Part shown: one piece after another, positions 7,026 through 27,703 of the stretch
Position numbering within the stretch: the stretch's first letter is position 1
Layout of the letters: every line of letters begins with the position of its first letter
Source of the DNA: an uncultured Chloroflexia bacterium
GTDB lineage: Bacteria; Chloroflexota; Ktedonobacteria; Ktedonobacterales; JADMIN01
Direction: 5' to 3'
Length of the DNA stretch: 32,000 nucleotides
Assembly (NCBI GenBank): GCA_963718915.1
Contig: CAVRAI010000015.1
Coordinates: 210,001 to 242,000 of the forward strand
Program-made: the position numbers and the translations under genes
The notes under the pieces: model-generated
The model's input: the letters and a program-made list of their open reading frames with translations, nothing else
Database searches by the model: none
Told to the model about the DNA's origin: nothing

Positions 7026-7338
7026 CGTATCCCCCACTTTTGGGTAACTTTGGGTAGCCAGAGATATGATAGCACGCGAGGCAGAAAGAACAAGCGGATG
7101 TTGGACGGACATGTTGGGGCGCCGCGCCGTGGCCTAAAGCGCCACGGCTAATCCTGGTGCAACCATTCCCGCTTGCCATCGGAAGAGAGCGCCGAACCAG
7201 CGGGGTTAGCCGCAGGTCTTCAGCCTGCGGCGTGGGGTTACCAGCACGCCCCTCCCACAATCGTCCGCTCTCGCGTATACTACGGGTATATCGCGTGTCG
7301 CTCGCTTCACCTGATTCACTTCTTGAGGAGGCTGTCAC

Positions 7339-8487
7339 ATGGCCAACGCCCTGCCGATCTTTGTCAGCCACAGCCACGAGGATGCCGCCTTCTGCCAGGC
7401 GCTGGTGACGGCGCTCCGTGGCGCGGGCGCCGATGTCTGGTATGACGAGCACAATCTAGGCGCGGGCCATCTGATGGACGTCATTCAGCAGGAGCTTGAT
7501 CGCCGCAAAATCTTCATTGTCATCCTCTCGAAGCGCGCCTTCGCCTCCAAATGGGTCAAGCGTGAGACGGGCTGGGCATACTCGCTCTACGACCGCGACC
7601 CCACCCGCGTCATCTTGCCCGTGACGGCTGCCACCATCGAGCGCGACGACTTTAGCGGCGCGACCGGCTGGCTCTACCTGGAGGAGTTCAAGCGGATCGA
7701 GGCGCCAGGCTACCAGCCGTACCCGCAGGCCGAGGCGGTGGGCCGCGTGCTCCATGCACTTGCGCTGACCCCAGCAGGCGAGGCGCCTGCCCCAACTGCT
7801 CCACAGCCGAGCGAGAGTGTTGACGACCTACTGACCAAGGGCAAAGCGCTCATGGCACAGCACAAGGTGACAGAACCGATGCGGTTCTTTGAACGGGCCA
7901 CCGAGATTGATCCAAACAATTTCGACGCCTGGGCAAACCTGGGTCGTCTCTATCTGTGGGACGGACAGACGCAGCGGGGGCTTGATGCCATTGACCGGGC
8001 ACTCACCTTGCGTGACAACGATCCCTATATCTGGTTTTATCGAGGGCAGAGTATGTTCGGTCTGCAACGCTATGAGGAGGCGCTCGCGTCGTTTGACCAT
8101 GCACTAGCCCTGAACCTAGAGGCTGAAGAGGCTCCGAAACACCCGTTTTCCCGTGTCTATCTCTGGTACCACAAGGCTATTGCTTATGAGAAGTTGCAGC
8201 GCTACGAAGAGGCTTTGGATGCTTACGATCGCCAGCTGGCGAGCGATGACCACTACCGAGTTGACAATAGGCTTTGGTTCGGCAAAGGGCGTGCGCTCAT
8301 AAGCTTAAGGCGCTACAAAGAGGCGCTCGAAGCTATCGAGAACGCGAGTCGGGGTCTGTTTCTGTATCCCGGGGCCGACAAGCTAGAATTAGAATACTAC
8401 CGAGACAGAGCAATTGCTCTGCGCGGATTAGGACGAACTCGTGAAGCGAAGGAGGCTGAGGCGCGTGCGAAGGCACTGGGCGGGTAG
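7339..8487 (+). CDS. TIR-domain protein fused to C-terminal TPR repeats
   Basis: 382-aa ORF with GAGGAGG Shine-Dalgarno upstream. The N-terminus, IFVSHSHEDAAFCQALVTALRGAGADVWYDEHNLGAGHLMDVIQQELDRRKIFIVILSKRAFASKWVKRE, matches the TIR_2-type pattern (IF(V/I)S(H/Y)s..D...a..L...L...G..VW.D ... S.WV..E). The C-terminal half holds about 6 TPR-like 34-aa units (DAWANLGRLYLWDGQTQRGLDAIDRAL, YIWFYRGQSMFGLQRYEEALASFDHAL, and others). Confidence 0.85.
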   Translation: MANALPIFVSHSHEDAAFCQALVTALRGAGADVWYDEHNLGAGHLMDVIQQELDRRKIFIVILSKRAFASKWVKRETGWAYSLYDRDPTRVILPVTAATIERDDFSGATGWLYLEEFKRIEAPGYQPYPQAEAVGRVLHALALTPAGEAPAPTAPQPSESVDDLLTKGKALMAQHKVTEPMRFFERATEIDPNNFDAWANLGRLYLWDGQTQRGLDAIDRALTLRDNDPYIWFYRGQSMFGLQRYEEALASFDHALALNLEAEEAPKHPFSRVYLWYHKAIAYEKLQRYEEALDAYDRQLASDDHYRVDNRLWFGKGRALISLRRYKEALEAIENASRGLFLYPGADKLELEYYRDRAIALRGLGRTREAKEAEARAKALGG

Positions 8488-8494
8488 AGGGTGC

Positions 8495-8697
8495 GGGCGG
8501 TTCAAACCGCGCCTCTTTGACCTCACTCCGTTTGGCCACAAAACCCGCCTGCGCGGGTTTCAGAGACCCGCTCACCATTGGATTCATCATCAGGACAGGT
8601 TCTGGGGAGTCCGCGCAGGCGGACTTCGTGGCGGAGCGGAGCGAGGCCATTTAGGCGCGACTTCAGTCGCCAGCCGTGTGGCGTGTCCCTCCTGTTC
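8495..8697. repeat. Hairpin-rich dispersed repeat element (MITE/REP-like), copy A
   Basis: It shares three blocks with 27869-28130. Block 1 is gggcggttcaaaccgcgcct (8495-8514 = 27869-27888). Block 2 is gccacaaaacccgcctgcgcgggtttcag (8535-8563 = 27917-27945). Block 3 is agtccgcgcagg...gcggacttcgtggc (8608-8632). A similar 3' tail follows. Internal hairpins are aaacccgc/gcgggttt and gtccgc/gcggac. It lies between convergent genes. Confidence 0.65.
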
Positions 8698-8710
8698 ATC
8701 CAAACCCGCA

Positions 8711-9148
8711 TTATCCGCCCGCGCTCCCCGCGTCGCTGTCGGCAGGCGGCGTTTCGGGCATGGCGGCGGCGCGGATGGCGGCCAGTAGCTCGGCAATGCG
8801 TACCGGCTTGTCGAGATAGGCGGCTGCGCCCGCGTTGAGCGCGAGCACCTTCACATTAGGGTCGGCGTAGGCGCTGAGGATGATCACTTTGGTATCGGGC
8901 AGCAGCGCGCGCAGGTCTTTGAGCACCAACCGTTTCGAGATGAAGCGCGTGTCTCCGGTGATGATGTCCATATCCAGCAGCAGCACATCCGGGCACAGGC
9001 GCTCGACCGCCTCGATGACCTCGCTCCCGCTGGCGGCCTCGCCGACAACGCTCATATCCGACTGCCTCGCGAGCGCGCGCCGCAGAATGGCGCGCATGGC
9101 CTGCGTGCCCTCGGCAATCAGTATGGAAATGGTGGCGTTCTCGCTCAT
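8711..9148 (-). CDS. Stand-alone response-regulator receiver (CheY-like) protein
   Basis: ORF 8711..9190. The start is placed at ATG 9148 (MSENATISILIAEG). REC pattern: ILIAEG...PDVLLLDMDI...VIILSAY...LNAGAAAYLDKP. No output domain is present. Confidence 0.85.
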   Translation of the reverse strand: MSENATISILIAEGTQAMRAILRRALARQSDMSVVGEAASGSEVIEAVERLCPDVLLLDMDIITGDTRFISKRLVLKDLRALLPDTKVIILSAYADPNVKVLALNAGAAAYLDKPVRIAELLAAIRAAAMPETPPADSDAGSAGG

Positions 9149-9196
9149 GGTCAACCAGACCTCATTAACGAATGCTCGTCTGCTGACCACATGATA

Positions 9197-9604
9197 CTAC
9201 ATTGCGTCGGTGGCGGGAAGCGTCACGGTCTCGGCAAGCGCTCGAATCGTCTCGGGGAGGGCGGTCAGCGTCTCGAACTTGGAGAGGAAGCAGGTGGCGC
9301 CCGCAGCGAGCGCGCGGGTGCGTGTCATGAGGTCGTCCTCCATGCTGAGGACGATAATTGGCGTATCAGGCAGCACGGCGCGTAGCGCTTTAGTCGCGGC
9401 AATGCCATCCATCTGCGGCATACGCGCATCCATCACGATCACATCGGGACGCAGTTGCAGCGCCAGAGTGAGCGCCTCCACGCCGTTTGCGGCCTCGCCG
9501 ATGACCCGCATATCTGGCTCCAGCCGCAGCCAGAGCTTCAGCCCATAGCGAACCGCCAGGCAATTATCGGCAATCAGCAACGTAATGGTAGATTCCTTGC
9601 CCAT
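9197..9604 (-). CDS. Stand-alone response-regulator receiver (NarL-type REC, no HTH)
   Basis: ORF 9197..9706. The start is placed at ATG 9604 (MGKESTITLLIADN), which is preceded by AGGAGG. REC pattern: LLIADN...PDVIVMDARMPQMDG...IIVLSMEDD...AAGATCFLSK. It ends without a DNA-binding domain. Confidence 0.85.
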   Translation of the reverse strand: MGKESTITLLIADNCLAVRYGLKLWLRLEPDMRVIGEAANGVEALTLALQLRPDVIVMDARMPQMDGIAATKALRAVLPDTPIIVLSMEDDLMTRTRALAAGATCFLSKFETLTALPETIRALAETVTLPATDAM

Positions 9605-10182
9605 CTCGTCTGCCTCCTGCGCTGTTGAATACATGGACAACGTTGGCCAGTGTATCCGCCAACCTGACATATCGTAGTACAGGATGAGGCATCCGAAATC
9701 GCGCAAATGATGTGTTGTCTCTCAGTCTTTGGACTGAATCGGATATCTTTACCCTACACACCGCCACCTGGGCATTCTCAAGCGAGAGAAGGCAAATGCC
9801 TCGCCGCCAGGTCATAGGGCCAGGATGGCGCGCACGTCGTACTATGACCATGAATACTTGCCTTCACCATCCTCAAATCTATGCTCGCCCGCCGTAGTCC
9901 GCATGTTGCTTCGTAAGTTTAGTAAACGAGACTTGATTCTTTCCCGAATTCTGCTATCATGATTTGCACAATCGCGCGTAAGATATTCGCCCGAGTAAGA
10001 GCGTCTAATGACGTAAGAGGGCCGATGGCCAGCGCCATCGTGAGGATGGAAGCGCGGTTTGTCGCCTCGATTGTATATCTACTTGACCAGTTGCAAAAAC
10101 ATGATATCCTCGATTCTGAGTTCGACAGAACGACTATGCATAGTGTGGTATAGTTGGGGAAAACAGGCGACAACAGGAGGCA

Positions 10183-11433
10183 TTGATGGATGTCCAAAAG
10201 CTGGAGGCCGTAGATCCAACACTTGCGCATGAAATCAACACCTTTGCTGTCAGCATTCCGCGCGATGCCAAAATGGGGCTTGGCCGCCTGGAGAGTGTTG
10301 TGCAGCGATTTGACTACCTTTCGCCCGACGCGGCCAACCTGATCCTGGATCCCAACAGTTTTGCGCAAGAGGTCGAACAGATCTATGAAAGAAGGATCCC
10401 TTTCTGGATCATTATGCGCAACATTACCAGCATCCTTCCCTTGTTGGCGACCTGGATCTCCCTTTTTCTGGCATCAAACGCCTACAGCGATTTCATTAAG
10501 CATCCTCTTGAGGGACAAGATACTACGGCATCGTTCTTCGTCTTATGGCAGAACAGCTTTTATGGCCGCCCAACGTACTCTTTCTCCGTCGCCGCGATAA
10601 TCGACGTTGTTCTGCTGGCTCTCTTCCTCTACCTGACGATTTCGGTGCAGCGCCAGGAGCAGAGAGCGCAGACGAAGGCCACGGTATTTGCCAATAACCT
10701 TCAGGCGATCTCCACCCGCCTGGTCGGCTTCATCGCGGAAAAAGGCAGCATCGCGCTTCCTCCCGGCGCCAACGTCCAGACGGTGGCCGATGCGGTCAAT
10801 CGCGCCAGCACGCAGGCGATTCAGGCCAGCAGGCAGATTGCGGATGAGGCGCGGAAACACATCGACGACGCCGAGAAGCGTGTTGATGCCCTGGTGAATC
10901 AGTTATCGCAACGGCTCACCGACATCCAGACGCAGATGAAGGATCTGGCGACCGCGACGAATAGCCTCGGCACGTCGGCGACAACACTCTCGTCGGGCGC
11001 AACTTCACTTGCGGGCAGCGCGGGACAGTATATCGCGGCGGGGCAGGAAATCAAGCAACACTTATCAACCCTGAACCAGACCGAGACGCAGCTGACCCAG
11101 CATCTGGGTACGATTGCCACAAGCGTCAGCACGGCGGTCAACGGGTTCACCAGCGCGACCCAGGAGGTACAGACGCTCTCGAAACTGGTCGATCAGGCGT
11201 CACGGCACGTCGCGGGCGCCACCGGCAGCCTGCAGGCGACAGGGCAATCGCTCTATGACACCGCCCAGGAGCTTAGTCGTTCAGGTAGAGCGATCGAGGA
11301 CGCCTCCCATCAGTTCGAACAGGCCTTGCGGGTCGCTGGCTATAACAGCCGTCGCGGCGGCGGCGGGAGCGTCTTTGACTGGATGTTTCGGCGAGGCTCG
11401 AAGCGTCGCGTCCGAAAGGGAGGTACGCCATGA
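10183..11433 (+). CDS. Membrane protein: N-terminal cytoplasmic segment, 2 TM helices, long Ala/Thr/Ser/Gln-rich alpha-helical (coiled-coil-like) domain, basic tail
   Basis: 416-aa ORF with AGGAGG 6 nt upstream of the ATG. TM candidates are IPFWIIMRNITSILPLLATWISLFLA and FSVAAIIDVVLLALFLYLTISV. The helical region contains AEKRVDALVNQLSQRLTDIQTQMKDLATATNSLG. The C-terminus is RRGGGGSVFDWMFRRGSKRRVRKGGTP. The stop overlaps the next ATG (ATGA at 11430-11433). Confidence 0.8.
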   Translation: MMDVQKLEAVDPTLAHEINTFAVSIPRDAKMGLGRLESVVQRFDYLSPDAANLILDPNSFAQEVEQIYERRIPFWIIMRNITSILPLLATWISLFLASNAYSDFIKHPLEGQDTTASFFVLWQNSFYGRPTYSFSVAAIIDVVLLALFLYLTISVQRQEQRAQTKATVFANNLQAISTRLVGFIAEKGSIALPPGANVQTVADAVNRASTQAIQASRQIADEARKHIDDAEKRVDALVNQLSQRLTDIQTQMKDLATATNSLGTSATTLSSGATSLAGSAGQYIAAGQEIKQHLSTLNQTETQLTQHLGTIATSVSTAVNGFTSATQEVQTLSKLVDQASRHVAGATGSLQATGQSLYDTAQELSRSGRAIEDASHQFEQALRVAGYNSRRGGGGSVFDWMFRRGSKRRVRKGGTP

Positions 11434-12053
11434 TGCGCTCGCTTAGCAGTGAACGCAAGTTGCCGATCTATCTGCTCATCGATACATCGGCAGCAATGAG
11501 TGGGGCTGCGATTGATTCGATGAGAAGTTCTCTGCTCGAGTTGAAACACCAGCTCGTCGAGTCTCCACAGACGTTGGAGAACGCCCTGGTGAGTCTGATT
11601 GTTTTTAGTGATGTCGCGCGACTGTATGAGTTTGTGCCAATCGATGAACTGGACCCGCCTGCCCTGGTTGCGTCGGGAGGGCGATCCGTCGGGGCGGCCC
11701 TGCATGTGCTGGTCGAGTCGCTCCAGCATGATATCGATGCATTGCGGGTTGGTTCTCGCAGTCCGCAGCGTCCGCTGGTGGTCCTGGTTCTCGGCGGGCC
11801 GACAACCGACTCCTACGAGCGCGATCTCAACGCGCTCCTCGCGCTGCCAGCAGGGCGTCGACCAACGTTTGTCGTACTGGCCTGTGGTGATGCGGTCGAC
11901 ACATCGTTTTTGCAGCCGCTTCATCCATTCACATTTCACACAAGAGTGGTCACGCCGGAGACACTGGCGCAAGCGTTTGGCGTTGTCTCGCGGACGATCA
12001 TTCAGTCGTCGCGCGGAGTGCCGCGGGATACCCTGGTTCCGCCAGTCAATTAG
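11430..12053 (+). CDS. TerY-like von Willebrand factor A (vWA) domain protein, MIDAS-degenerate paralog 1
   Basis: 207-aa ORF. The N-terminus KLPIYLLIDTSAAMSGAAI has TerY/COG4245-like architecture. MIDAS DxSxS reads DTSAA, and the TDG position reads LGGPTTD. Confidence 0.85.
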   Translation: MMRSLSSERKLPIYLLIDTSAAMSGAAIDSMRSSLLELKHQLVESPQTLENALVSLIVFSDVARLYEFVPIDELDPPALVASGGRSVGAALHVLVESLQHDIDALRVGSRSPQRPLVVLVLGGPTTDSYERDLNALLALPAGRRPTFVVLACGDAVDTSFLQPLHPFTFHTRVVTPETLAQAFGVVSRTIIQSSRGVPRDTLVPPVN

Positions 12054-12137
12054 TAGTGGCTGGCGCTGCTCGCTCGTATATGCGCCAATGGAGCGAGTGG
12101 CAATGAGGCGATTCAGCCGTGCAGGCATGAAAGGGGC

Positions 12138-12809
12138 ATGGGACGTATGGATCCATCCATGGGTGGGCAGCAACGAAAATTTCCGGTGTATCTCCTGTTA
12201 GACTGTTCCAGTTCGATGTCAGGCGCGCCGATCATCGCCGTCAATGAAGGGCTGGAGCTTGTCTATCGAGAGTTGATGCGAGATCCGCAGGCGCGAGAAA
12301 GTGTCTGGATCAGTCTCATACGTTTTGCGTCCGCGGCTTCGCAGGATCCGCTGACTCCTATCGATCAATTTGTTCCGCCGACGGTCACTGCGAGTGGCAG
12401 CACGGCGATGGGCGGCGCGTTCACGCTCCTCGTCGATTCCATCAAACAGGACCTGGCGGCCAAGTCTGGTAGTCATCGCGGCGACTATCGCCCGCTGGTT
12501 TTCCTGCTGACAGACGGCGCCCCAACCGATAACTGGCAAGGCCCTGTGCAAAACCTGAAGGCGCTCAGCGGCGCGCAGAAACCCGCCATTGTCGCGCTGG
12601 GCTGTGGCGGCGGTGTGAACGCGCCGATGCTCAGTCAGGTCACGAGTGAAGTCTATTTGATGGCCAATGTCACGGGCGATCAGTTGAAGGCGTTCTTCCG
12701 CCTCATCTCGGGGTCTATCGTCTCGGCGTCACGCGCGGCGGGGGCGGGTGGCGAAGCCAGCATGCAGGCGCCAGACGCGATTCCCGGCGTCATCAAGTAC
12801 TCGCCGTAA
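12138..12809 (+). CDS. TerY-like vWA domain protein with canonical MIDAS, paralog 2
   Basis: 223-aa ORF. It contains KFPVYLLLDCSSSMSGAPI (DxSxS intact), ASGSTAMGGAF (Thr) and VFLLTDGAPTD (Asp). ATG 12147 has better spacing to AAGGGG than ATG 12138, so it is an alternative start. Confidence 0.9.
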   Translation: MGRMDPSMGGQQRKFPVYLLLDCSSSMSGAPIIAVNEGLELVYRELMRDPQARESVWISLIRFASAASQDPLTPIDQFVPPTVTASGSTAMGGAFTLLVDSIKQDLAAKSGSHRGDYRPLVFLLTDGAPTDNWQGPVQNLKALSGAQKPAIVALGCGGGVNAPMLSQVTSEVYLMANVTGDQLKAFFRLISGSIVSASRAAGAGGEASMQAPDAIPGVIKYSP

Positions 12810-12850
12810 TTCCCGGCGTTTTTGCCCGCGATGCGTCTCTACCCGGCCCG

Positions 12851-12895
12851 CGCATGTGCCGCATGTGTTGCGTGAGTCGCATGTGTCGTATGAAC
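12851..12895. repeat. Imperfect 9-bp tandem repeat x5 (cgcatgtgc cgcatgtgt tgcgtgagt cgcatgtgt cgtatgaac)
   Basis: Read directly from the sequence. It lies in the 205-bp gap between vWA paralogs 2 and 3. Confidence 0.6.
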
Positions 12896-13014
12896 CGCAG
12901 ACACTGGATGAGATGCATCGCGCCAAATGATAAAGCTCACCGGGCTGCTCTGGCGGCCCGGATAGTTGCGATGTAGCGCGCGATGCGCGACGGAGTCAGA
13001 GAAGAGGCTCAGCG

Positions 13015-13671
13015 ATGTCGGGAACCCGTGTGCGCCCAAGACGACTGCCGGTCTTCTTCCTCGTCGATGACTCCGCGGCCATGATCGGCGCCATGGCGGT
13101 CGCGGCCTCTGAAGGGTTGCAGGCGTTTCAGCGAGACGTACAGGCGCATGACATTGGCGTGCGCAGCGTCTACTTGAGTGTCTCCCTGCTGGGCGAACAG
13201 GCGTACACGTCGCCGCTCAACTCCCTCGCGCTTTTCACCATGCCGTCGTTCCAGGCGCAGGGCGAGTGTTCGCTCACTCCGGGGCTGCGGCACGTGCAAC
13301 GCGAGATTGACGACTCGGTGGTCGCGGACGCGCCCGAACAGTTGCGCGATCTGCACCCTACCGTCTTTGTCATTGTTGGTGGAGCGCTCAAAGACGACCC
13401 CGATGACCTGCGGGCGGCGGTGGATTCCCTTGCGCAGCTCGATGGCGCGCGGCGGCCACGGCTTTTTACCATCACCGCCGCGCGTGACCATGATGCGCTC
13501 AAGCTCCTGGGCGGCCATCTGCTGCAGATGTCGCACGCCGATGGCGACACTGTGGCGAATGCGTTCGCATGGGCCAGGGAACTTGTCATCGCTATCTGCG
13601 AGATGCAGGCGCGCGGTGAGCACGACCTGAATCTGCCAGCCTATCCCGCGGGAATCACACTCCTGTCGTAG
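13015..13671 (+). CDS. TerY-like vWA domain protein, MIDAS-degenerate paralog 3
   Basis: 218-aa ORF. RLPVFFLVDDSAAMIGAMAV has the same layout as the two upstream vWA genes. MIDAS reads DDSAA, and the TDG position reads VIVGGALKDD. Confidence 0.8.
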   Translation: MSGTRVRPRRLPVFFLVDDSAAMIGAMAVAASEGLQAFQRDVQAHDIGVRSVYLSVSLLGEQAYTSPLNSLALFTMPSFQAQGECSLTPGLRHVQREIDDSVVADAPEQLRDLHPTVFVIVGGALKDDPDDLRAAVDSLAQLDGARRPRLFTITAARDHDALKLLGGHLLQMSHADGDTVANAFAWARELVIAICEMQARGEHDLNLPAYPAGITLLS

Positions 13672-13773
13672 TGCTCGTACTGCGCGACTCAATCGAACGC
13701 CTGTGCTGCGCGAATCGCCGCCACTGGCTGGCGGCGCGTGATGCGTCGATCTATCGACCTCCACGGAGGGACA

Positions 13774-14091
13774 ATGGCTGGCATGAAGAAGTTCGGGTCG
13801 GGTTGTCTGAGAATTGCGCTCATGGCAGGCGTGATCGCGATTGTAATCGCGTTTGCCTTTCTCAGTTGGCCTAGGAGCGGCGCCATTCAGCTTTCTTCAC
13901 CGGATCATTCCAGAGACAGTCATGGCAGGGTGTCGCGCGACGTCTGCATTCCATCGAATCGCTATCCTGGCCGCCATCGTTCTGGCTGGTGGCATGCATC
14001 ATCGCTGGGTCTGATATTGGGCCGTGTGTTCTTTGCCAAGAGTCCGCGCCAAGAGACAAGTGCACAAGCGCAGGAGGTCTGGTTCCCATGA
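13774..14091 (+). CDS. Small hypothetical membrane protein (single clear N-terminal TM); reading frame downstream of about 13870 uncertain
   Basis: GGAGGG lies 4 nt upstream of ATG 13774. The product starts MAGMKKFGSGCLRIALMAGVIAIVIAFAFLSW. The remainder of this frame is Arg/Ser/His-rich. The two other forward frames carry hydrophobic stretches (FHRIAILAAIVLAGG; SFWLVACIIAG), so frame errors are possible. Confidence 0.4.
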   Translation: MAGMKKFGSGCLRIALMAGVIAIVIAFAFLSWPRSGAIQLSSPDHSRDSHGRVSRDVCIPSNRYPGRHRSGWWHASSLGLILGRVFFAKSPRQETSAQAQEVWFP

Positions 14092-15615
14092 TGAACGATA
14101 ACGCTCCCCGATACCGACGATGTAGAGCAATTGCGAGCGGATCGCAAGCAATACTATGACGATGCCCAGAACAACCAATAGAATGTACAACAACATGAAA
14201 GCCGACCGGGACAACGTACAGGCCGACCGGGATAATATTCAGCAACAACTGGATCAACTAAAAGCCGACAGGGAAAAAACAGTAAGCCGCGACAAATATG
14301 AGAGGCTTAAGCAAGATTATCAACTACTAGAAAGCGACTTTAAGCGCGCGCAAGACGGCCTATCAAACTGCACAAGAGATCAATCGAATCAGCTGCAACA
14401 GCAGATTGACCAGCCTTAACCGTGAAGTTGCGAACCTGCGCGGTGACAGTAATAACCTCACCTGGCGGCTACGAACCGCGAAAGAGCGCGAGCAGGCGCT
14501 GATGCTGGAGAACCAGGGGCGGGAGCGTGAGGTTCAGCGGTTGCGCGAGCGCCTCACGCAGTTGCAGCGGGGCGGAGCCGCCGGGCCTATCGCGACTGCG
14601 GAGTTTGCAGATCCTGAGCCGGGCGATCCGCCCGATTATGAGCGCGAGAAAGAGAAACACAACCATCGTAAGGTCATTCCTGAAAACGGTGGGCCGTTCC
14701 AACTGGCCGAAGGGTGGCGGCTTATCGGCGCCAGTCGGCGCGGACGCGGGCACGAACTTAACCATAAATATCGCGATGACGATTTCGCGGTACAGGTGTT
14801 TGGGAATGGGCGCGCGGTGGCGGTGGCCATCGCGGATGGCCTGGGCAGCAAGGAGTTCTCCCGCTGGGGCGCTCGCTCGGCGGTCAATGGCGCGATACTC
14901 GCCCTTGAGGAACGTGGCGTGCTGCAACTCGCCACCACGGTCGCAAAGCTGGGTGAGCAGCGACGGCCATCAGCTCGCACAAGCCTCACAAGCCGCACAG
15001 CGCCAGTTCGACGAAGAAATGTTTAACAGGCATAAAGCTCGTGATGAGTTCGCGAAACAACTGATCGAGCAGATGCTAGTTGGGGCGCGCGACATGGTTA
15101 GGCAGAAAGCGGATAAAGAATCCAAATCTGTCGATGAGCTGCACTCGACACTGCTGGTCTTTCTCGCGATTCCGCACAAGATGCCGCACAACGAGCAGTT
15201 CATGTTCTTCGCCAGCGCGCAGGTGGGCGATGGCGCAATACGGTCGGTCAGCCGCGCCACATCGAGCGGACAGTGGACGTTGCAGGAGCAGCCGCAGCTC
15301 AACGGCATCGACAATGAGGTGCAGCCGTTCATGCGTTTCGATCCCAGTCACTACCGCGATCGCGATTTCATTCATGTCACCGACCTGGAATCGCCCGAGT
15401 TCATCGTCGGCATGACCGACGGCACACTGGACGATATCGAGGGTGGTCCCGATGAGAATGGGCTATTCAAGGGCATCGAGGACTTCTATGGTCGCATCAG
15501 GCAAGAGGCGATAGCCACGCGCACACCCGCGTCGGGTTTATACGAGTTTCTGGGCTATCGGAAACGCGCCTCGTTCGATGATCGCACGCTCGTCTGTCTA
15601 TATCGGGGATCGTAG
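14088..15615 (+). pseudogene. Coiled-coil + PP2C-type (PP2C_2-like) Ser/Thr phosphatase, interrupted by about 4 frameshifts
   Basis: AGGAGG lies 10 nt upstream of ATGATG at 14088. The coherent protein requires frame changes 0->1 (about 14100), 1->2 (14160-14181), 2->0 (about 14410-14419) and 0->1 (about 14955-14965). The coiled coil reads QLRADRKQYYDDAQNNQ / KADRDNVQADRDNIQQQLDQLKADREK / LNREVANLRGD...EREVQRLRERLTQLQ. PP2C motifs are GASRRGRGHELNHKYRDDDFAV, AIADGLGS, QVGDGA, GMTDGTLDD and FDDRTLVCLY. Confidence 0.75.
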
Positions 15616-15627
15616 AGGAGAAAGCTT

Positions 15628-17074
15628 ATGCCATCGCCGTCGGTGACTGTGACCTATGCTGACAATACCACTGAAGAGTTCGTAGATGTTATTGGGCAGG
15701 GCGCGCAGGGCATCATTCTTGCCTCGCGGGATGGCCGCAGCGCCGTCAAGCTCTACCCTCCTAGCACCTCACTGGCCGATGCGCAGCGCCGTGCCGAAAT
15801 TATTTTGCGTCTCATCAATGAACTGAACCCGACCAGGGATGATCCCTACTGGCAAGACTACTTCACCTGGCCCGAAAAACTGGTCGTCAGCCCTCTGATA
15901 GGCTATCGTATGCGCCTCGCCGCGAATATGAAGACGATGGCGAATTATGTTTCCCAAAAACATTCAACAGCATGGCCCCCAAAGACCAGGGGTGGTTCCT
16001 GGGACGCATGGCCGCCGCCATCAAGATCGCCAACGTCGCCCAGCGCATGTCGGCGCGTGGCATCTGCTATCCAGACTTCTCCTTCAACAACGTGATGCTC
16101 GACGCCTTCGACGGGCGCATGACGCTTGATCGACTGCGACAGTATTACCGTTCCGGGCACCGTGCCCCCGGAGGTGATTGGCACGTTTAATTTCTGGCGC
16201 CAGAGCTGTGGAGCCAGCAGCAGAAGATTCCCACCGTCACGAGCGACCGCCACTCGCTGGCGACGGTGCTCTACTACCTGCTGGTCGGCTATCATCCGCT
16301 GATAGGGTGACAAAGTCCATTTCCCCGACGATCCTGACAAGGACGATGTGGCGCGCCTTGGCCCGCAGGCGCTCTATATCGAGGACCCCAACGACCAGTC
16401 GAACCGGAATGCTACACCAGCGCATCTTTGCCAGCATGCTCGGTACAGAACTGGACGAACTCTTCCGCGAGGTGTTTGTCGCGGGGCTACATCATCCTAC
16501 CGCTCGCCCGCAGCCGCAGCAGTGGCTTCCGGCGCTTGTGCGTGCCTTTGACCGGATTGTTCCCTGCGAGACGCCCGCGCCGCAGTGCTGGTGGCACAGC
16601 TTTGTCGCGCTTCCGCAGAACAACTTCACCTGTCCCTGCTGCAATCAGCGCCTCCGGGAGCCACGTACGCTGCCGTTTGTCTACCTGTTGCCGCATAACA
16701 AGACCAAAGATCCCGAAGCCTATGACGAGGCCATTGGCCGCGATAAGCATCACATCGTGGGCTGGCCGGAGCGCTCGCTCTTTGAATGGCATACGATCAT
16801 CGGCAAGCCCGCCTGGCACACCGACCCGCAGCATCCGGTCTCGCGCACGCCACAGGCTACATTCCTACATAACAGCGGCAGCGACGAGTGGCAGTTGCGG
16901 AACGATGCGCTGCCGGAGATGGCGGTGCGTAGCGGAGGATCGTGGACCCCGGTGGCGCGGGGAGCGTCCACACCGCTGACCCACGGCACGGTGCTTCGCT
17001 TTGGTCCTGGGCCTGTTGTCGGCTCCGGCCCCGTTTATTATCGCGCGCGGGTTGTGCTGCACCATCTGGCATAA
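15628..17074 (+). pseudogene. Hanks-type Ser/Thr protein kinase (TerY-P/YegI-like) with C-terminal Cys4 ribbon and beta-rich tail, interrupted by about 5 frameshifts
   Basis: GAGGAG Shine-Dalgarno precedes ATG 15628. Kinase motifs are spread over three frames. Frame 1 has IGQGAQGIIL and SAVKLY. Frame 0 has ICYPDFSFNNVML. Frame 1 has LIDCDSITVPG. Frame 0 has LAPELW...SDRHSLATVLYYLLVGYHPL. Frame 1 has DKVHFPDDPDKDDVARLGPQALYIEDPNDQSNR. Frame 2 has LHQRIFASMLGTELDELF...CETPAPQCWWH...FTCPCCNQ.... Junctions lie at about 15945-15955, 16126-16129, 16189-16195, 16305-16310 and 16405-16415. Confidence 0.8.
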
Positions 17075-17084
17075 GGGGGAACGC

Positions 17085-17627
17085 ATGCCATTGCGCGCTA
17101 TTCCGAAGATAGATGAGCGCCAACCGTGGCCGACGATTACGATCTCGACGCGCGAGCGCGAAGTAATCGCCACGCCTGCTCACGCGCCCGCGCCCGTGCC
17201 GGGGTCGAGAAAGACCACCCATCCCTTAGCGCAAAAAAGGGTCACGGCGCCGCCGAGCCACACGCAGGGAACACAGAACCCGCCACCGCTGCCGCCGCTG
17301 TCAGCATCGCCGGGTGGCGCGGGAAGCGTTGTGTTGGGATGGCTCGCCGCTTTCCCCAAGGGTGCGCTGATCGGCGCTACCTTGTTTGCGATCTATTATG
17401 GATTCTTTCTCAATCGCGCGTTCTGGCTGGTCGATTGGCACTGGGCCTATCTCGCGGGTGGAGTGGTTCTGGCCACCATCCTGATTCGCTTCGACCGCAT
17501 GCTGATCCTGCTGGCGGCTGTTGGGTTGTGGTATAGCCGCGCGACCCTGCTAGATGCGCCGGAGCTGTTCGCGGTCTGGATTGCTGGTGGCATTATTGGT
17601 CGGCTACTGTATGAGGCGTTGCCGTAA
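17085..17627 (+). CDS. Hypothetical membrane protein (Pro-rich N-terminal region + 3-4 TM helices)
   Basis: ORF 17001..17627. The start is placed at ATG 17085, which follows AAGGGGGA and lies 10 nt after the kinase stop. TM candidates are VVLGWLAAFPKGALIGATLFAIYYGFF, WAYLAGGVVLATILI, MLILLAAVGLWY and LFAVWIAGGIIGRLLY. Confidence 0.7.
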   Translation: MPLRAIPKIDERQPWPTITISTREREVIATPAHAPAPVPGSRKTTHPLAQKRVTAPPSHTQGTQNPPPLPPLSASPGGAGSVVLGWLAAFPKGALIGATLFAIYYGFFLNRAFWLVDWHWAYLAGGVVLATILIRFDRMLILLAAVGLWYSRATLLDAPELFAVWIAGGIIGRLLYEALP

Positions 17628-17647
17628 GTTTGTCTGAGGAGGCCGTC

Positions 17648-18007
17648 ATGGCAAGAGACCTGCCCTACCTGCCCAGTCCAGCTGCATCCGGGTCGTGGCC
17701 GACGTTTAGTCTCGATATGGGTACCCGCCAGAACATCGCAAGCGGGAGAGGTCCGCGAGCCAGTGGGTCGAATCCTTCCCCGCAAGGCGCTCACGTAGGT
17801 GTGATGCCGCCGCCACCCTTGAACCCTGGCGGCGCACAGGACTCTAACCCCGGCGGAGTAGGGGGCGGCAACGTGGTACGTCGGTACGATCCGGCTACAG
17901 GCCAAATTATTCGTACCCCGCAGGCGCAAACGCATGCCACTAGGCCGGGCGAGCCGGGTGGGATCAAACCGGCGAAACAACCCATCCGGACGGCTGGTCC
18001 GCAATAA
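17648..18007 (+). CDS. Hypothetical Pro/Gly-rich, probably disordered protein
   Basis: GAGGAGG lies 6 nt upstream of ATG 17648, which is 20 nt after the previous stop. The 119-aa product is low-complexity (PPPPLNPGGAQDSNPGGVGGG). Coding status is supported mainly by the SD and the operon context. Confidence 0.5.
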   Translation: MARDLPYLPSPAASGSWPTFSLDMGTRQNIASGRGPRASGSNPSPQGAHVGVMPPPPLNPGGAQDSNPGGVGGGNVVRRYDPATGQIIRTPQAQTHATRPGEPGGIKPAKQPIRTAGPQ

Positions 18008-18082
18008 CGAAAAGAACAAAAGATGGTCTGTGATGCTCCATAGCGGGGCGTGTTTTGGGGTACTGGGTAAGGCAGGATTGTC

Positions 18083-18659
18083 ATGCTGAATCGTCAACGC
18101 GATAGTCATGGGCCAAATGTAGGCTGGCTGTTTGCCGATCTGCTTCTTGCGCTGGCGGTGATCTTTCTGGTCGCCAACGCCTCTGGCTCTATCGCTAAAT
18201 CTGTCAGGCCCATCATGACGCCCACCCCGACGTTGGCGCCAACGCCTGTGCCGCCGCCGCCGCCATCGACCAAGAACTATTTCGCATTTCCCATCAAGTT
18301 TGATGACTTTGCTCTGGAGAGTGGAGACGGTAGCACGGCTACAGCATCGTACGCGACCAGATTGAAGCCCGACTGACAGAGAAGGGCTATGCAATTCGTG
18401 TGGAGCCGTGCTGGTGCTTGTCTTTGGTGGCACCCCTTCACTGGATGATCGCTATGCGACAAATCGTGCGACAAACGCCGCTGATGCCGTCATCAACCAG
18501 TTGAAAGCGGAGGGCAGTCAGGGTTTTGTCTTCACCAAGGCACAATACCATTCGCCGTTCCTCTTCAAAAGCCAGTTTGGCATGGTGCAAGATTCAGGTC
18601 TACTTTTTCAACACCTCCAAACAGTGCGAGCCGTAGCCTGTGATACGAAATACGTTTAG
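18083..18659 (+). pseudogene. Hypothetical single-pass membrane protein (TM + Pro-rich linker + globular domain), interrupted by 2 frameshifts
   Basis: ATG 18083. Frame 2 reads GWLFADLLLALAVIFLVANA...PTPTLAPTPVPPPPPSTKNYFAFPIKFDDFALESGDGST. Frame 1 (from about 18340-18347) reads SIVRDQIEARLTEKGYAIRVE. Frame 0 (from about 18400-18408) reads VLVLVFGGTPSLDDRYATNRATNAADAVINQLKAEGSQGFVF... and runs to the stop at 18659. Confidence 0.6.
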
Positions 18660-18681
18660 CATGTTGTCGTTGGGCGCCTGT

Positions 18682-18810
18682 CTGTAGCGTAAACGCTACG
18701 GCGCGCGCACCAAACCGCAACAACCCAGACGGACTTGGTGTGAGCGGAGAGGCTACAGCGAATTTCCCGTCTGCATCATTTGCCCATTCGCCGTAGCATT
18801 TACGCTTCGG
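18682..18810. repeat. Hairpin-bounded intergenic element between convergent genes (possible bidirectional terminator or REP-like element)
   Basis: ctgtagcgtaaacgctacgg (18682-18701, stem gtagcg/cgctac) and ccgtagcatttacgcttcgg (18791-18810) are related near-palindromes that flank about 90 bp of non-coding sequence. Confidence 0.4.
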
Positions 18811-18820
18811 CCTGCTCCCC

Positions 18821-25717: not shown

Positions 25718-25987
25718 TGTGTCGCCTGCCCAATCTATTGCGAACGGACTGAGACGGCGACAACAGCCATCCAAATCGCTATAATAGAATGTCGGGGACG
25801 TGTTTCCCTGTTTCGATACTGCCCAACCTGGGAGGAGAAATATTCGCGTGGCTGCATCATCACGAAAGAAATCATCTGTACCCCTGAACCTGGGGAACGC
25901 TCGCCCTTTGCGACGGCGCTGCGTACCGCCTCCTGTGGCGAGCTGACCGTCGCCGATGTTGGCCGCAATGTCATCATCACCGGCTGG

Positions 25988-27703
<1,716 letters not shown>

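Follow-up and report, generated by a model that had tools for sequence, protein, structure and literature searches.

Within a nine-gene locus on a 32,000-nucleotide (nt) stretch of DNA from a Ktedonobacterales genome (contig CAVRAI010000015.1, positions 210,001 to 242,000), recognisable protein sequence changes its reading frame twelve times, and the question is whether these shifts belong to the organism or to its deposited sequence. The whole stretch is called the window in the following; coordinates are window positions and refer to the forward strand unless stated otherwise. The locus is encoded on the forward strand from 10183 to ~18636. Six of its nine genes are intact, and the broken ones are a PP2C phosphatase gene, a Ser/Thr kinase gene and the last small gene. 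It appears probable that the insertions and deletions (indels) are residual consensus errors, which a long-read or indel-prone assembly retained in patches where coverage was low or polishing was lacking, and that they are present in the deposited sequence, not in the organism. We infer this technical origin, while the positions of the indels, their ±1 nature, the intact coding signal and the intact orthologous loci were directly observed.

Intact relatives and the kinase gene

Closely related, intact copies of the locus were found in public assemblies and are designated L001-L003 (GCA_037025105.1, GCA_037025085.1 and a Logan run) and L004-L013 (Logan runs). The gene order is identical in all of them: a membrane/coiled-coil protein of ~430 amino acids (aa) is followed by three vWA proteins, a PP2C_2 phosphatase of 486-575 aa, a kinase of 473 aa and three small proteins of ~160-176, 96-109 and 167-174 aa. 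A close relative of the locus is intact as well; its kinase was found without any difference on 14 contigs, which derive from at least 10 independent sequencing runs. The comparison with orthologous loci, which had been proposed as a check in a preliminary description of the window, showed the relatives to be intact and single-frame, and none of the indels is shared by them.

For the location of the frameshifts, orthologous proteins were aligned to the window with a purpose-written protein-to-DNA aligner which permits frameshifts. The intact 473-aa homologs align end to end with the stitched kinase (15628-17074, 480 aa; 77-80% identity, 99% coverage) only along the frame path 0>2>0>2>0>1. Junctions were placed at 15952, 16125, 16189, 16305 and 16414, and the segments between them have identities of 75-97% and no stops. 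A nucleotide alignment with two intact orthologs using MAFFT contained exactly five window-specific 1-nt gaps, and all other gaps were multiples of 3. According to both alignments, the five events are a 1-nt deletion at 15951 (15949-15953), in the third position of a GTn codon beside a T run; a 1-nt insertion at 16126 (16124-16128), which changes CTG to CTTG beside GATC; a 1-nt deletion at 16191 (16188-16192), where AAn TTT became AATTT; a 1-nt insertion at 16308 (16305-16309), which changes ATAGGG-GAC to ATAGGGTGAC; and a 1-nt insertion at 16415 (16412-16417) in GCTACACCAG. The first 320 nt and the last 660 nt of the gene are free of indels; all five events fall within 32% of its length (P ~0.04).

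The stitched protein retains all 66 columns which are invariant across 22 sequences, including the catalytic residues K41, D150, N155, D169 and E192. The kinase domain is followed by four cysteines (C312, C319, C334 and C337), also invariant in the 22 sequences, which are predicted to form a C-terminal four-Cys zinc ribbon, a putative metal site, and by a beta-rich domain. AlphaFold2 modelled the stitched kinase as a confident single chain (pLDDT, the predicted local distance difference test score, 91.1; predicted template modelling score, pTM, 0.91). With this model, Foldseek retrieved the protein-kinase fold (GSK3, BRAF and PknB at E ~1e-10). The Pfam Pkinase profile matched the stitched sequence with 27 bits, just under the cut-off.

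Apart from the frameshifts, the kinase gene contains a window-specific in-frame insertion of 18 nt near the C-terminus (17012-17029, encoding VVGSGP), which occurs in none of 21 homologs. For the kinase homologs P0001, P0005 and P0006 (80%, 59% and 56% identity), no PP2C partner was present among the PP2C matches. This may be due to a limit of the word-based candidate collection, in which coiled-coil words saturated the 8000 candidates, or to an unannotated partner. The kinase also has more remote relatives, which were seen chiefly in Ktedonobacteria and other Chloroflexota and, at 28-30% identity, also in metagenome-assembled genomes (MAGs) of Bacteroidales, Verrucomicrobiota and Planctomycetes.

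The phosphatase gene

The PP2C_2 phosphatase with its N-terminal coiled coil (14088-15615, ~507 aa after stitching) is divided in the same manner. The Pfam PP2C_2 match is distributed over two open reading frames (ORFs) in different frames and becomes one match of 72 bits after stitching (cut-off 24; profile positions 1-191 of 209). From the alignments with the L001 and L004 proteins, the DNA alignment and a codon-usage model (see below), the frame path 2>0>1>2>0 was obtained, with junctions near 14106, 14165, 14411 and 14955. The first shift (+1, frame 2>0; 14100-14110) lies at the CCCC run 14106-14109, the second (+1, frame 0>1) at 14160-14175 and the third (+1, frame 1>2; 14405-14416) in the context CAGCCTTAAC; all three were placed by alignment and codon model. 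The fourth (+1, frame 2>0; 14953-14960) is situated in a variable linker of the catalytic domain and coincides with a window-specific DNA gap of 16 nt (15+1) at 14953, besides being found by alignment and codon model. The last 650 nt of the gene are free of indels. The motifs ADGLG, VGDG, MTDG and FDDRT, which are metal-binding motifs judging by sequence, are retained, and an AGGAGG is present 10 nt upstream of the ATG at 14088. A further protein search for the phosphatase returned no homolog above 52% identity.

The preliminary description had suspected that a small transmembrane (TM) gene at 13774-14091 is affected as well. This frame-0 ORF is open from 13738 to 14091 and its TGA overlaps the ATG at 14088; in relatives, it corresponds to the N-terminus, i.e., the membrane anchor, of the PP2C protein. 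In L001, TM helices are fused to the PP2C protein at its N-terminus (575 aa in total), and in L004 the upstream ORF is in frame with its PP2C gene. Between 13858 and 14065, low-penalty alignments and the codon model change frames, but at very low identity. Thus, one to four further shifts may exist in the membrane-anchor part (~13858-14065), which are unproven and are not counted here.

Two tandem units of 21 nt (14190-14231, 81% identical) encode a repeated heptad, NNMKADRD/NVQADRD, in the coiled coil of the phosphatase. This repeat is an in-frame duplication and no frameshift site.

The last small gene

The last gene of the locus (18083-18636), a small membrane-anchored protein of ~180 aa after stitching, follows the frame path 1>0>2>0 with junctions near 18340, 18400 and 18583, according to homolog alignment, codon model and C-terminal motif. 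The first two shifts (-1, frame 1>0, at 18336-18345; -1, frame 0>2, at 18398-18406) were found by alignment and codon model. The third (+1, frame 2>0, at 18560-18590) was not called by the codon model and its support is moderate: it restores the C-terminal motif KIQVYFFNT, which is common to L004, L025, L001, L015 and L022, and it was placed by dynamic programming alignment with L004. A DNA alignment cannot place the indels of this gene, since the orthologs are too diverged (47-53% nt identity).

A frameshift in aspS

A thirteenth frameshift was found outside the cluster, in a housekeeping gene. The preliminary description had listed an ORF of 571 aa among the uninterrupted ones, which proved to be mistaken: this ORF is aspS, encoding aspartyl-tRNA synthetase (AspRS), which a 1-nt frameshift at ~25881 (25848-25890, by comparison with L058) has severed from its start codon. 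L058 is a soil contig from ENA to which the housekeeping backbone of the window is 75-88% DNA-identical. The GTG start at 25848 and the first 11 codons of aspS are in frame 2, and the remainder, as far as 27703, continues in frame 1. The syntenic relative L058 has an identical ribosome-binding site (GGGAGGAG) and identical first 11 aa. The body of the gene lies in frame 1 from ~25883, a frame without ATG, GTG or TTG before 25988, and ORF calling would shorten aspS to 571 aa with a start at 25988. The NCBIfam AspRS profile (positions 3-588 of 590), however, already matches from ~25916. The window reads ACCCC where L058 reads AACCCCC, and one base added back restores aspS. As aspS carries a 1-nt frameshift, the assembly probably has indel errors elsewhere too; aspS is taken as an indispensable gene here, with the proviso that the genome may hold a second AspRS copy elsewhere.

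Codon model, clustering and profile of the indels

Frame changes were determined a second time without homologs, using a Viterbi model of codon usage, for which the intact genes served as the training set (GC content at third codon positions, GC3 = 0.76). The model recovers the kinase junctions, the PP2C junctions and the first two last-gene junctions within a few bases. In 19 control genes, only two short spurious excursions occurred. The frame hops given for phosphatase, kinase and last gene in the preliminary description were therefore accurate within a few bases by alignment, DNA alignment and codon model, far beyond chance.

No internal frameshift was detected in the six other genes of the locus and in 12 backbone genes. 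Homologs validated ~22.8 kb of coding sequence, and 3.55 kb of this contain twelve of the 13 detected frameshifts (binomial P ~2e-9), which bears out the strong clustering described before. The density is ~1 event per 100-300 nt in three patches versus ~1 per 19 kb elsewhere in the window. The earlier count of at least 11 frameshifts confined to the enzymatic and distal part of the locus holds nearly so: the shift in aspS lies outside, and the third shift of the last gene (~18583) had been overlooked. The events disregard gene boundaries, and two entire genes between the affected ones (17085-17627 and 17648-18007) are clean.

Each of the five events in the kinase gene measures exactly 1 nt, and each of the other seven in the cluster is consistent with ±1 nt. 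Over all 13 events, eight insertions and five deletions were counted. Some events touch short homopolymers, as had been noted, but these runs comprise 4 bases or fewer; the longest homopolymers (A6 at 14274 and at 17233) are untouched. An excess of insertions combined with spared long homopolymers is unlike replication slippage or a natural deletion bias.

With every in-frame segment stop-free and conserved, the information for the full-length proteins is present, and expression in spite of the shifts could be imagined by programmed ribosomal frameshifting, transcriptional slippage or RNA editing at ~12 sites. We consider this barely credible. None of the junctions has a slippery heptamer (X XXY YYZ), a CUU UGA-type, prfB-like or dnaX-like motif or a long homopolymer. 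Inspection of the sequence indicated that, at 15951 and 16191, re-pairing of the P-site tRNA after the frame change would be impossible. Moreover, +1 and -1 shifts would both be required within 60-180 nt of each other, and the orthologs encode all these proteins in a single frame.

Selection on the stitched genes

Known bacterial pseudogenes decay through a mixture of substitutions, nonsense codons and larger deletions, and recent pseudogenes usually have one lesion. The second explanation to be weighed is that the indels are real, i.e., that repeated 1-base indels disabled the PP2C gene, the kinase gene and the last gene very recently, after acquisition of the island, while the vWA and small membrane genes were under selection or escaped. 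The clustering is highly non-random and strikes enzymatic genes, whose loss could relieve a cost or toxicity. The island is absent from the syntenic relative L058, and an integrase fragment adjoins the related copy of the locus in L008. In addition, an independent contig (L059, see below) shows the assembly to be exact in at least one adjacent stretch of 1.2 kb. Nevertheless, we regard a real inactivation as rather unlikely on the following grounds.

First, the number of stop codons in the three stitched ORFs (3.5 kb) is 0, which confirms the earlier statement that nonsense codons are missing in the correct frames; this absence is only moderately discriminating, since for substitution:indel ratios of 5 and 10, P is 0.14 and 0.02, respectively. 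Twelve ±1 events without a stop codon, with 3-5 independent hits per gene, are unlike known pseudogene decay. Second, the ratio of non-synonymous to synonymous substitution rates (dN/dS) was calculated for the frame-corrected genes, as had been suggested. Compared with L004, the stitched kinase has a ratio of 0.12 and the stitched PP2C one of 0.21, and the intact neighbours lie at 0.12-0.25; since dS is saturated (1.1-1.9), a very recent relaxation would stay invisible in these values. Selection signatures equal to those of intact neighbours favour an error in the sequence.

Third, the 460-nt patch of the kinase gene with its five indels was compared to the rest of the gene. Not one of 39 near-invariant columns is changed in the patch. 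Of residues conserved within the clade (four closest homologs), one of 89 is changed in the patch versus eight of 181 outside. Neutral decay usually proceeds with 3-5 substitutions per indel, and ~6-11 changes would then be expected among the 89 residues; an excess of amino acid changes is thus lacking. The proportion of non-synonymous differences (pN) is 0.06 in the patch and 0.157 in the rest of the gene. Of the signs by which a pseudogene is recognised, neither a raised dN/dS nor nonsense codons nor lost catalytic residues were found.

Fourth, insertions exceed deletions and the longest homopolymers are spared, as described above. Fifth, a uniform rate of indels over the island is difficult to reconcile with 0 events in the six other genes (4.1 kb) of this operon-like locus (P ~1e-6). 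Finally, aspS bears a like lesion.

A variant of this explanation assumes genuine indels which stem from a localised, near-pure indel process or from repeated selection for loss of function, whereby the enzymatic genes and the last gene were hit 3-5 times each and the others spared. We assign a very low probability to it. If true, it would mean a targeted mutagenesis of the enzymatic genes of the module, or a novel expression route for multiply frameshifted genes.

Independent sequence data and the origin of the indels

Public data were searched for further copies of the same sequence. A contig of 1176 nt from Logan run ERR11563127 (L059) is 100% identical to window positions 16582-17757, a section without any junction, and the strain of the organism is thus probably present in this run, too, judging from sequence identity. 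The exact 180-aa product encoded at 17085-17627 is also recorded on a contig of >1 Mb. Exact-product matching found this gene only; the second and third vWA genes, the M14 peptidase gene, gene 1 and the 119-aa gene were unmatched. Exact-product look-ups for two ORF fragments created by the frameshifts (15628-16095 and 18083-18376) gave no match, and no match was obtained in a scan of JGI metagenomes with a pattern tolerating the junction at 16126.

An artefact of another type would be a chimeric consensus, in which reads of two diverged strains or of paralogous loci were collapsed or cross-mispolished; it predicts heterogeneity rather than low coverage. Ktedonobacteria MAGs do hold several paralogous loci (L014 and L028 are from one MAG), the island is strain-variable, and the short matching Logan contig ends after 1.2 kb on both sides, as would occur with branching or low coverage. 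However, the paralogs found are only 33-53% protein-identical and hence too diverged to collapse, and the stitched sequence is no mosaic of divergent segments: the identity to L004 is smooth and highest in the patch. A chimera is, therefore, quite improbable.

We return to residual consensus errors in low-coverage or unpolished patches. Under this explanation, single-base insertions and deletions would have been left in short low-quality patches at ~14.1-15.0, 15.95-16.42 and 18.34-18.59 kb. These patches lie in a strain-variable accessory island, in which the coverage or the polishing probably fell short of that in the chromosomal backbone, and the genes underneath would form an intact, selectively maintained nine-gene module of the TerY-P-like kind. 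Indels without substitutions, stops or larger deletions favour a local sequencing or assembly error over biology. Two hints point to a long-read and possibly metagenomic source with patchy support: the product recorded on a contig of >1 Mb, which suggests a long-read source assembly, and the fact that the only independent contig is a Logan fragment of 1.2 kb. Of the three explanations which the preliminary description had put forward without commitment, i.e., error, recent inactivation or something exotic, the first is favoured by the lone indels, the purifying selection and the lesion in aspS, and exotic recoding is very unlikely.

Several observations weigh against sequence errors and have to be kept in mind besides the moderate power of the stop-codon count. 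The clustering is extreme (~60-fold over the rest of the window) and concerns the enzymatic genes of a possibly costly accessory module; in such genes of such an island, real inactivation would be least surprising. In addition, the sole independent assembly, L059, spans a clean stretch and neither confirms nor refutes any junction.

Gene content and genomic setting of the locus

The first gene (10183-11433) encodes a membrane and coiled-coil protein of 416 aa and is intact: it has 66% identity to the 428-aa ortholog of L004 with 0 frameshifts in the frameshift-aware alignment, and it is also the first gene in the loci of L001 and L004. Three genes for TerY-like vWA proteins follow, all of them intact. 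The first (11430-12053, 207 aa) matches Pfam VWA with E=2.7e-4, below the gathering score, and is 54% identical to its L004 ortholog without internal frameshift. The second (12138-12809, 223 aa) matches Pfam VWA above the gathering score (E=1.7e-7) and has 79% identity to L004 with 0 frameshifts; the sole gap in its DNA alignment comprises 24 nt and is in frame. The third (13015-13671, 218 aa; 59% to L004, 0 frameshifts) was recognised as a paralog of the other two by tblastn. A full metal ion-dependent adhesion site (MIDAS) motif DxSxS is present only in the second of the three paralogs (DCSSS), and the MIDAS-like motifs of the first (DTSAA) and third (DDSAA) are degenerate. Between the kinase gene and the last gene, a small membrane protein of 180 aa (17085-17627) and a small Pro/Gly-rich protein of 119 aa (17648-18007) are encoded, both intact according to homolog alignment. 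In a scan of genome contigs, the relatives obtained had an identity of 53% or less.

L058, the closest relative of the backbone, has neither the region of the TIR-TPR gene (~7113-9240) nor the whole locus (~9740-18820). Due to this absence, the locus is regarded as an accessory island in a Ktedonobacterales genome. It appears to occupy a variable, defence-island-like spot flanked by genes for a MalT/STAND regulator and an M14 peptidase; the closest matches of the M14 peptidase are in Ktedonobacterales MAGs (88%). Repeats, tRNAs and Rfam families were searched for marks of the island ends or regulatory RNAs, and nothing relevant was obtained.

Compared to L058 11696-12867, the window contains two insertions: the first consists of the TIR-TPR gene (7339-8487) and an extra response-regulator gene, the second is the nine-gene locus. 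At the second insertion site, L058 has an aminoglycoside-resistance-like gene. The response-regulator genes on the minus strand (8711-9190 and 9197-9706) are tandem paralogs with the direct repeats D2 and D3, which are separated by 456 nt; only one gene is present there in L058. The convergent intergenic region between the TIR-TPR and response-regulator genes contains a long imperfect inverted repeat (8493-8674) with arms of 77 nt, which are 70% complementary, and a loop of 28 nt.

Comparison with known systems

In programmed frameshifting (prfB +1, dnaX -1 and IS3-family -1), the full-length product needs a frame change, as it would here. In those systems, each gene has one such site, marked by a defined slippery sequence and by stimulators that orthologs share, whereas the locus has 12 sites, no motifs and none shared with relatives. 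Frameshift pseudogenes known from reductive evolution or from recent host-restricted pathogens also appear as several adjacent ORF fragments homologous to one protein. The fragments of the locus differ from them in that nonsense codons, larger deletions and a rise of dN/dS are missing, and in having 3-5 ±1 indels per gene with an insertion bias.

The error profile described for long-read assemblies, as in an analysis of ONT assemblies, comprises deletions after short homopolymers and insertions largely outside of them (PMC12007338). The window agrees with these errors in that 1-base indels split conserved genes into adjacent ORFs of different frames, deletions are found by short homopolymers and insertions mostly outside, no substitutions or stops are added, and a housekeeping gene is affected too. 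It differs in that its events are strongly patchy and not genome-wide.

If the indels are an artefact, they are a matter of quality control only: in an annotation pipeline, three genes would pass for pseudogenes and aspS would be shortened. Censuses of defence systems would then overlook or mis-score a complete TerY-P-like module of a Ktedonobacterales genome, whose proteins the stitched sequences recover. If reads confirm the indels, the locus would be an unusual case of multi-hit, indel-only inactivation in the enzymatic core of a putative defence module.

The proteins were also compared with the models of PADLOC 2.0.0, whose TerY-P model content is unverified; neither the three vWA proteins nor the PP2C domain had a match. 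The kinase gave weak PD-T4-6 matches only (E=1.7e-7 or weaker). Because the models miss vWA and PP2C, the locus was classed as a member of the TerY-P kind and not as a catalogued defence system. The TerY-P triad is composed of a TerY-like vWA protein, a PP2C phosphatase and a Ser/Thr kinase, to whose C-terminus either a zinc ribbon (Anantharaman et al. 2012) or an OB fold (Gao et al. 2020; both summarised in PMC11090510) is fused. All three components are found in the locus, namely vWA, an adjacent PP2C and a Ser/Thr kinase with C-terminal zinc ribbon (PMC11090510). The underlying biology of the locus is ordinary, and it is a TerY-P-like member from Ktedonobacterales. By analogy, the module is presumed to take part in stress or phage sensing as a membrane-associated phosphorylation switch scaffolded by vWA proteins. 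It shares with the TerY-P triad the presence and adjacency of the three component types, the C-terminal four-Cys zinc ribbon of the kinase and the location in an accessory island beside a TIR-TPR gene. In contrast to the triad, it has three vWA paralogs, one of them with the full DxSxS MIDAS, a membrane/coiled-coil protein, a membrane-anchored coiled-coil extension of the PP2C phosphatase and three small membrane proteins.

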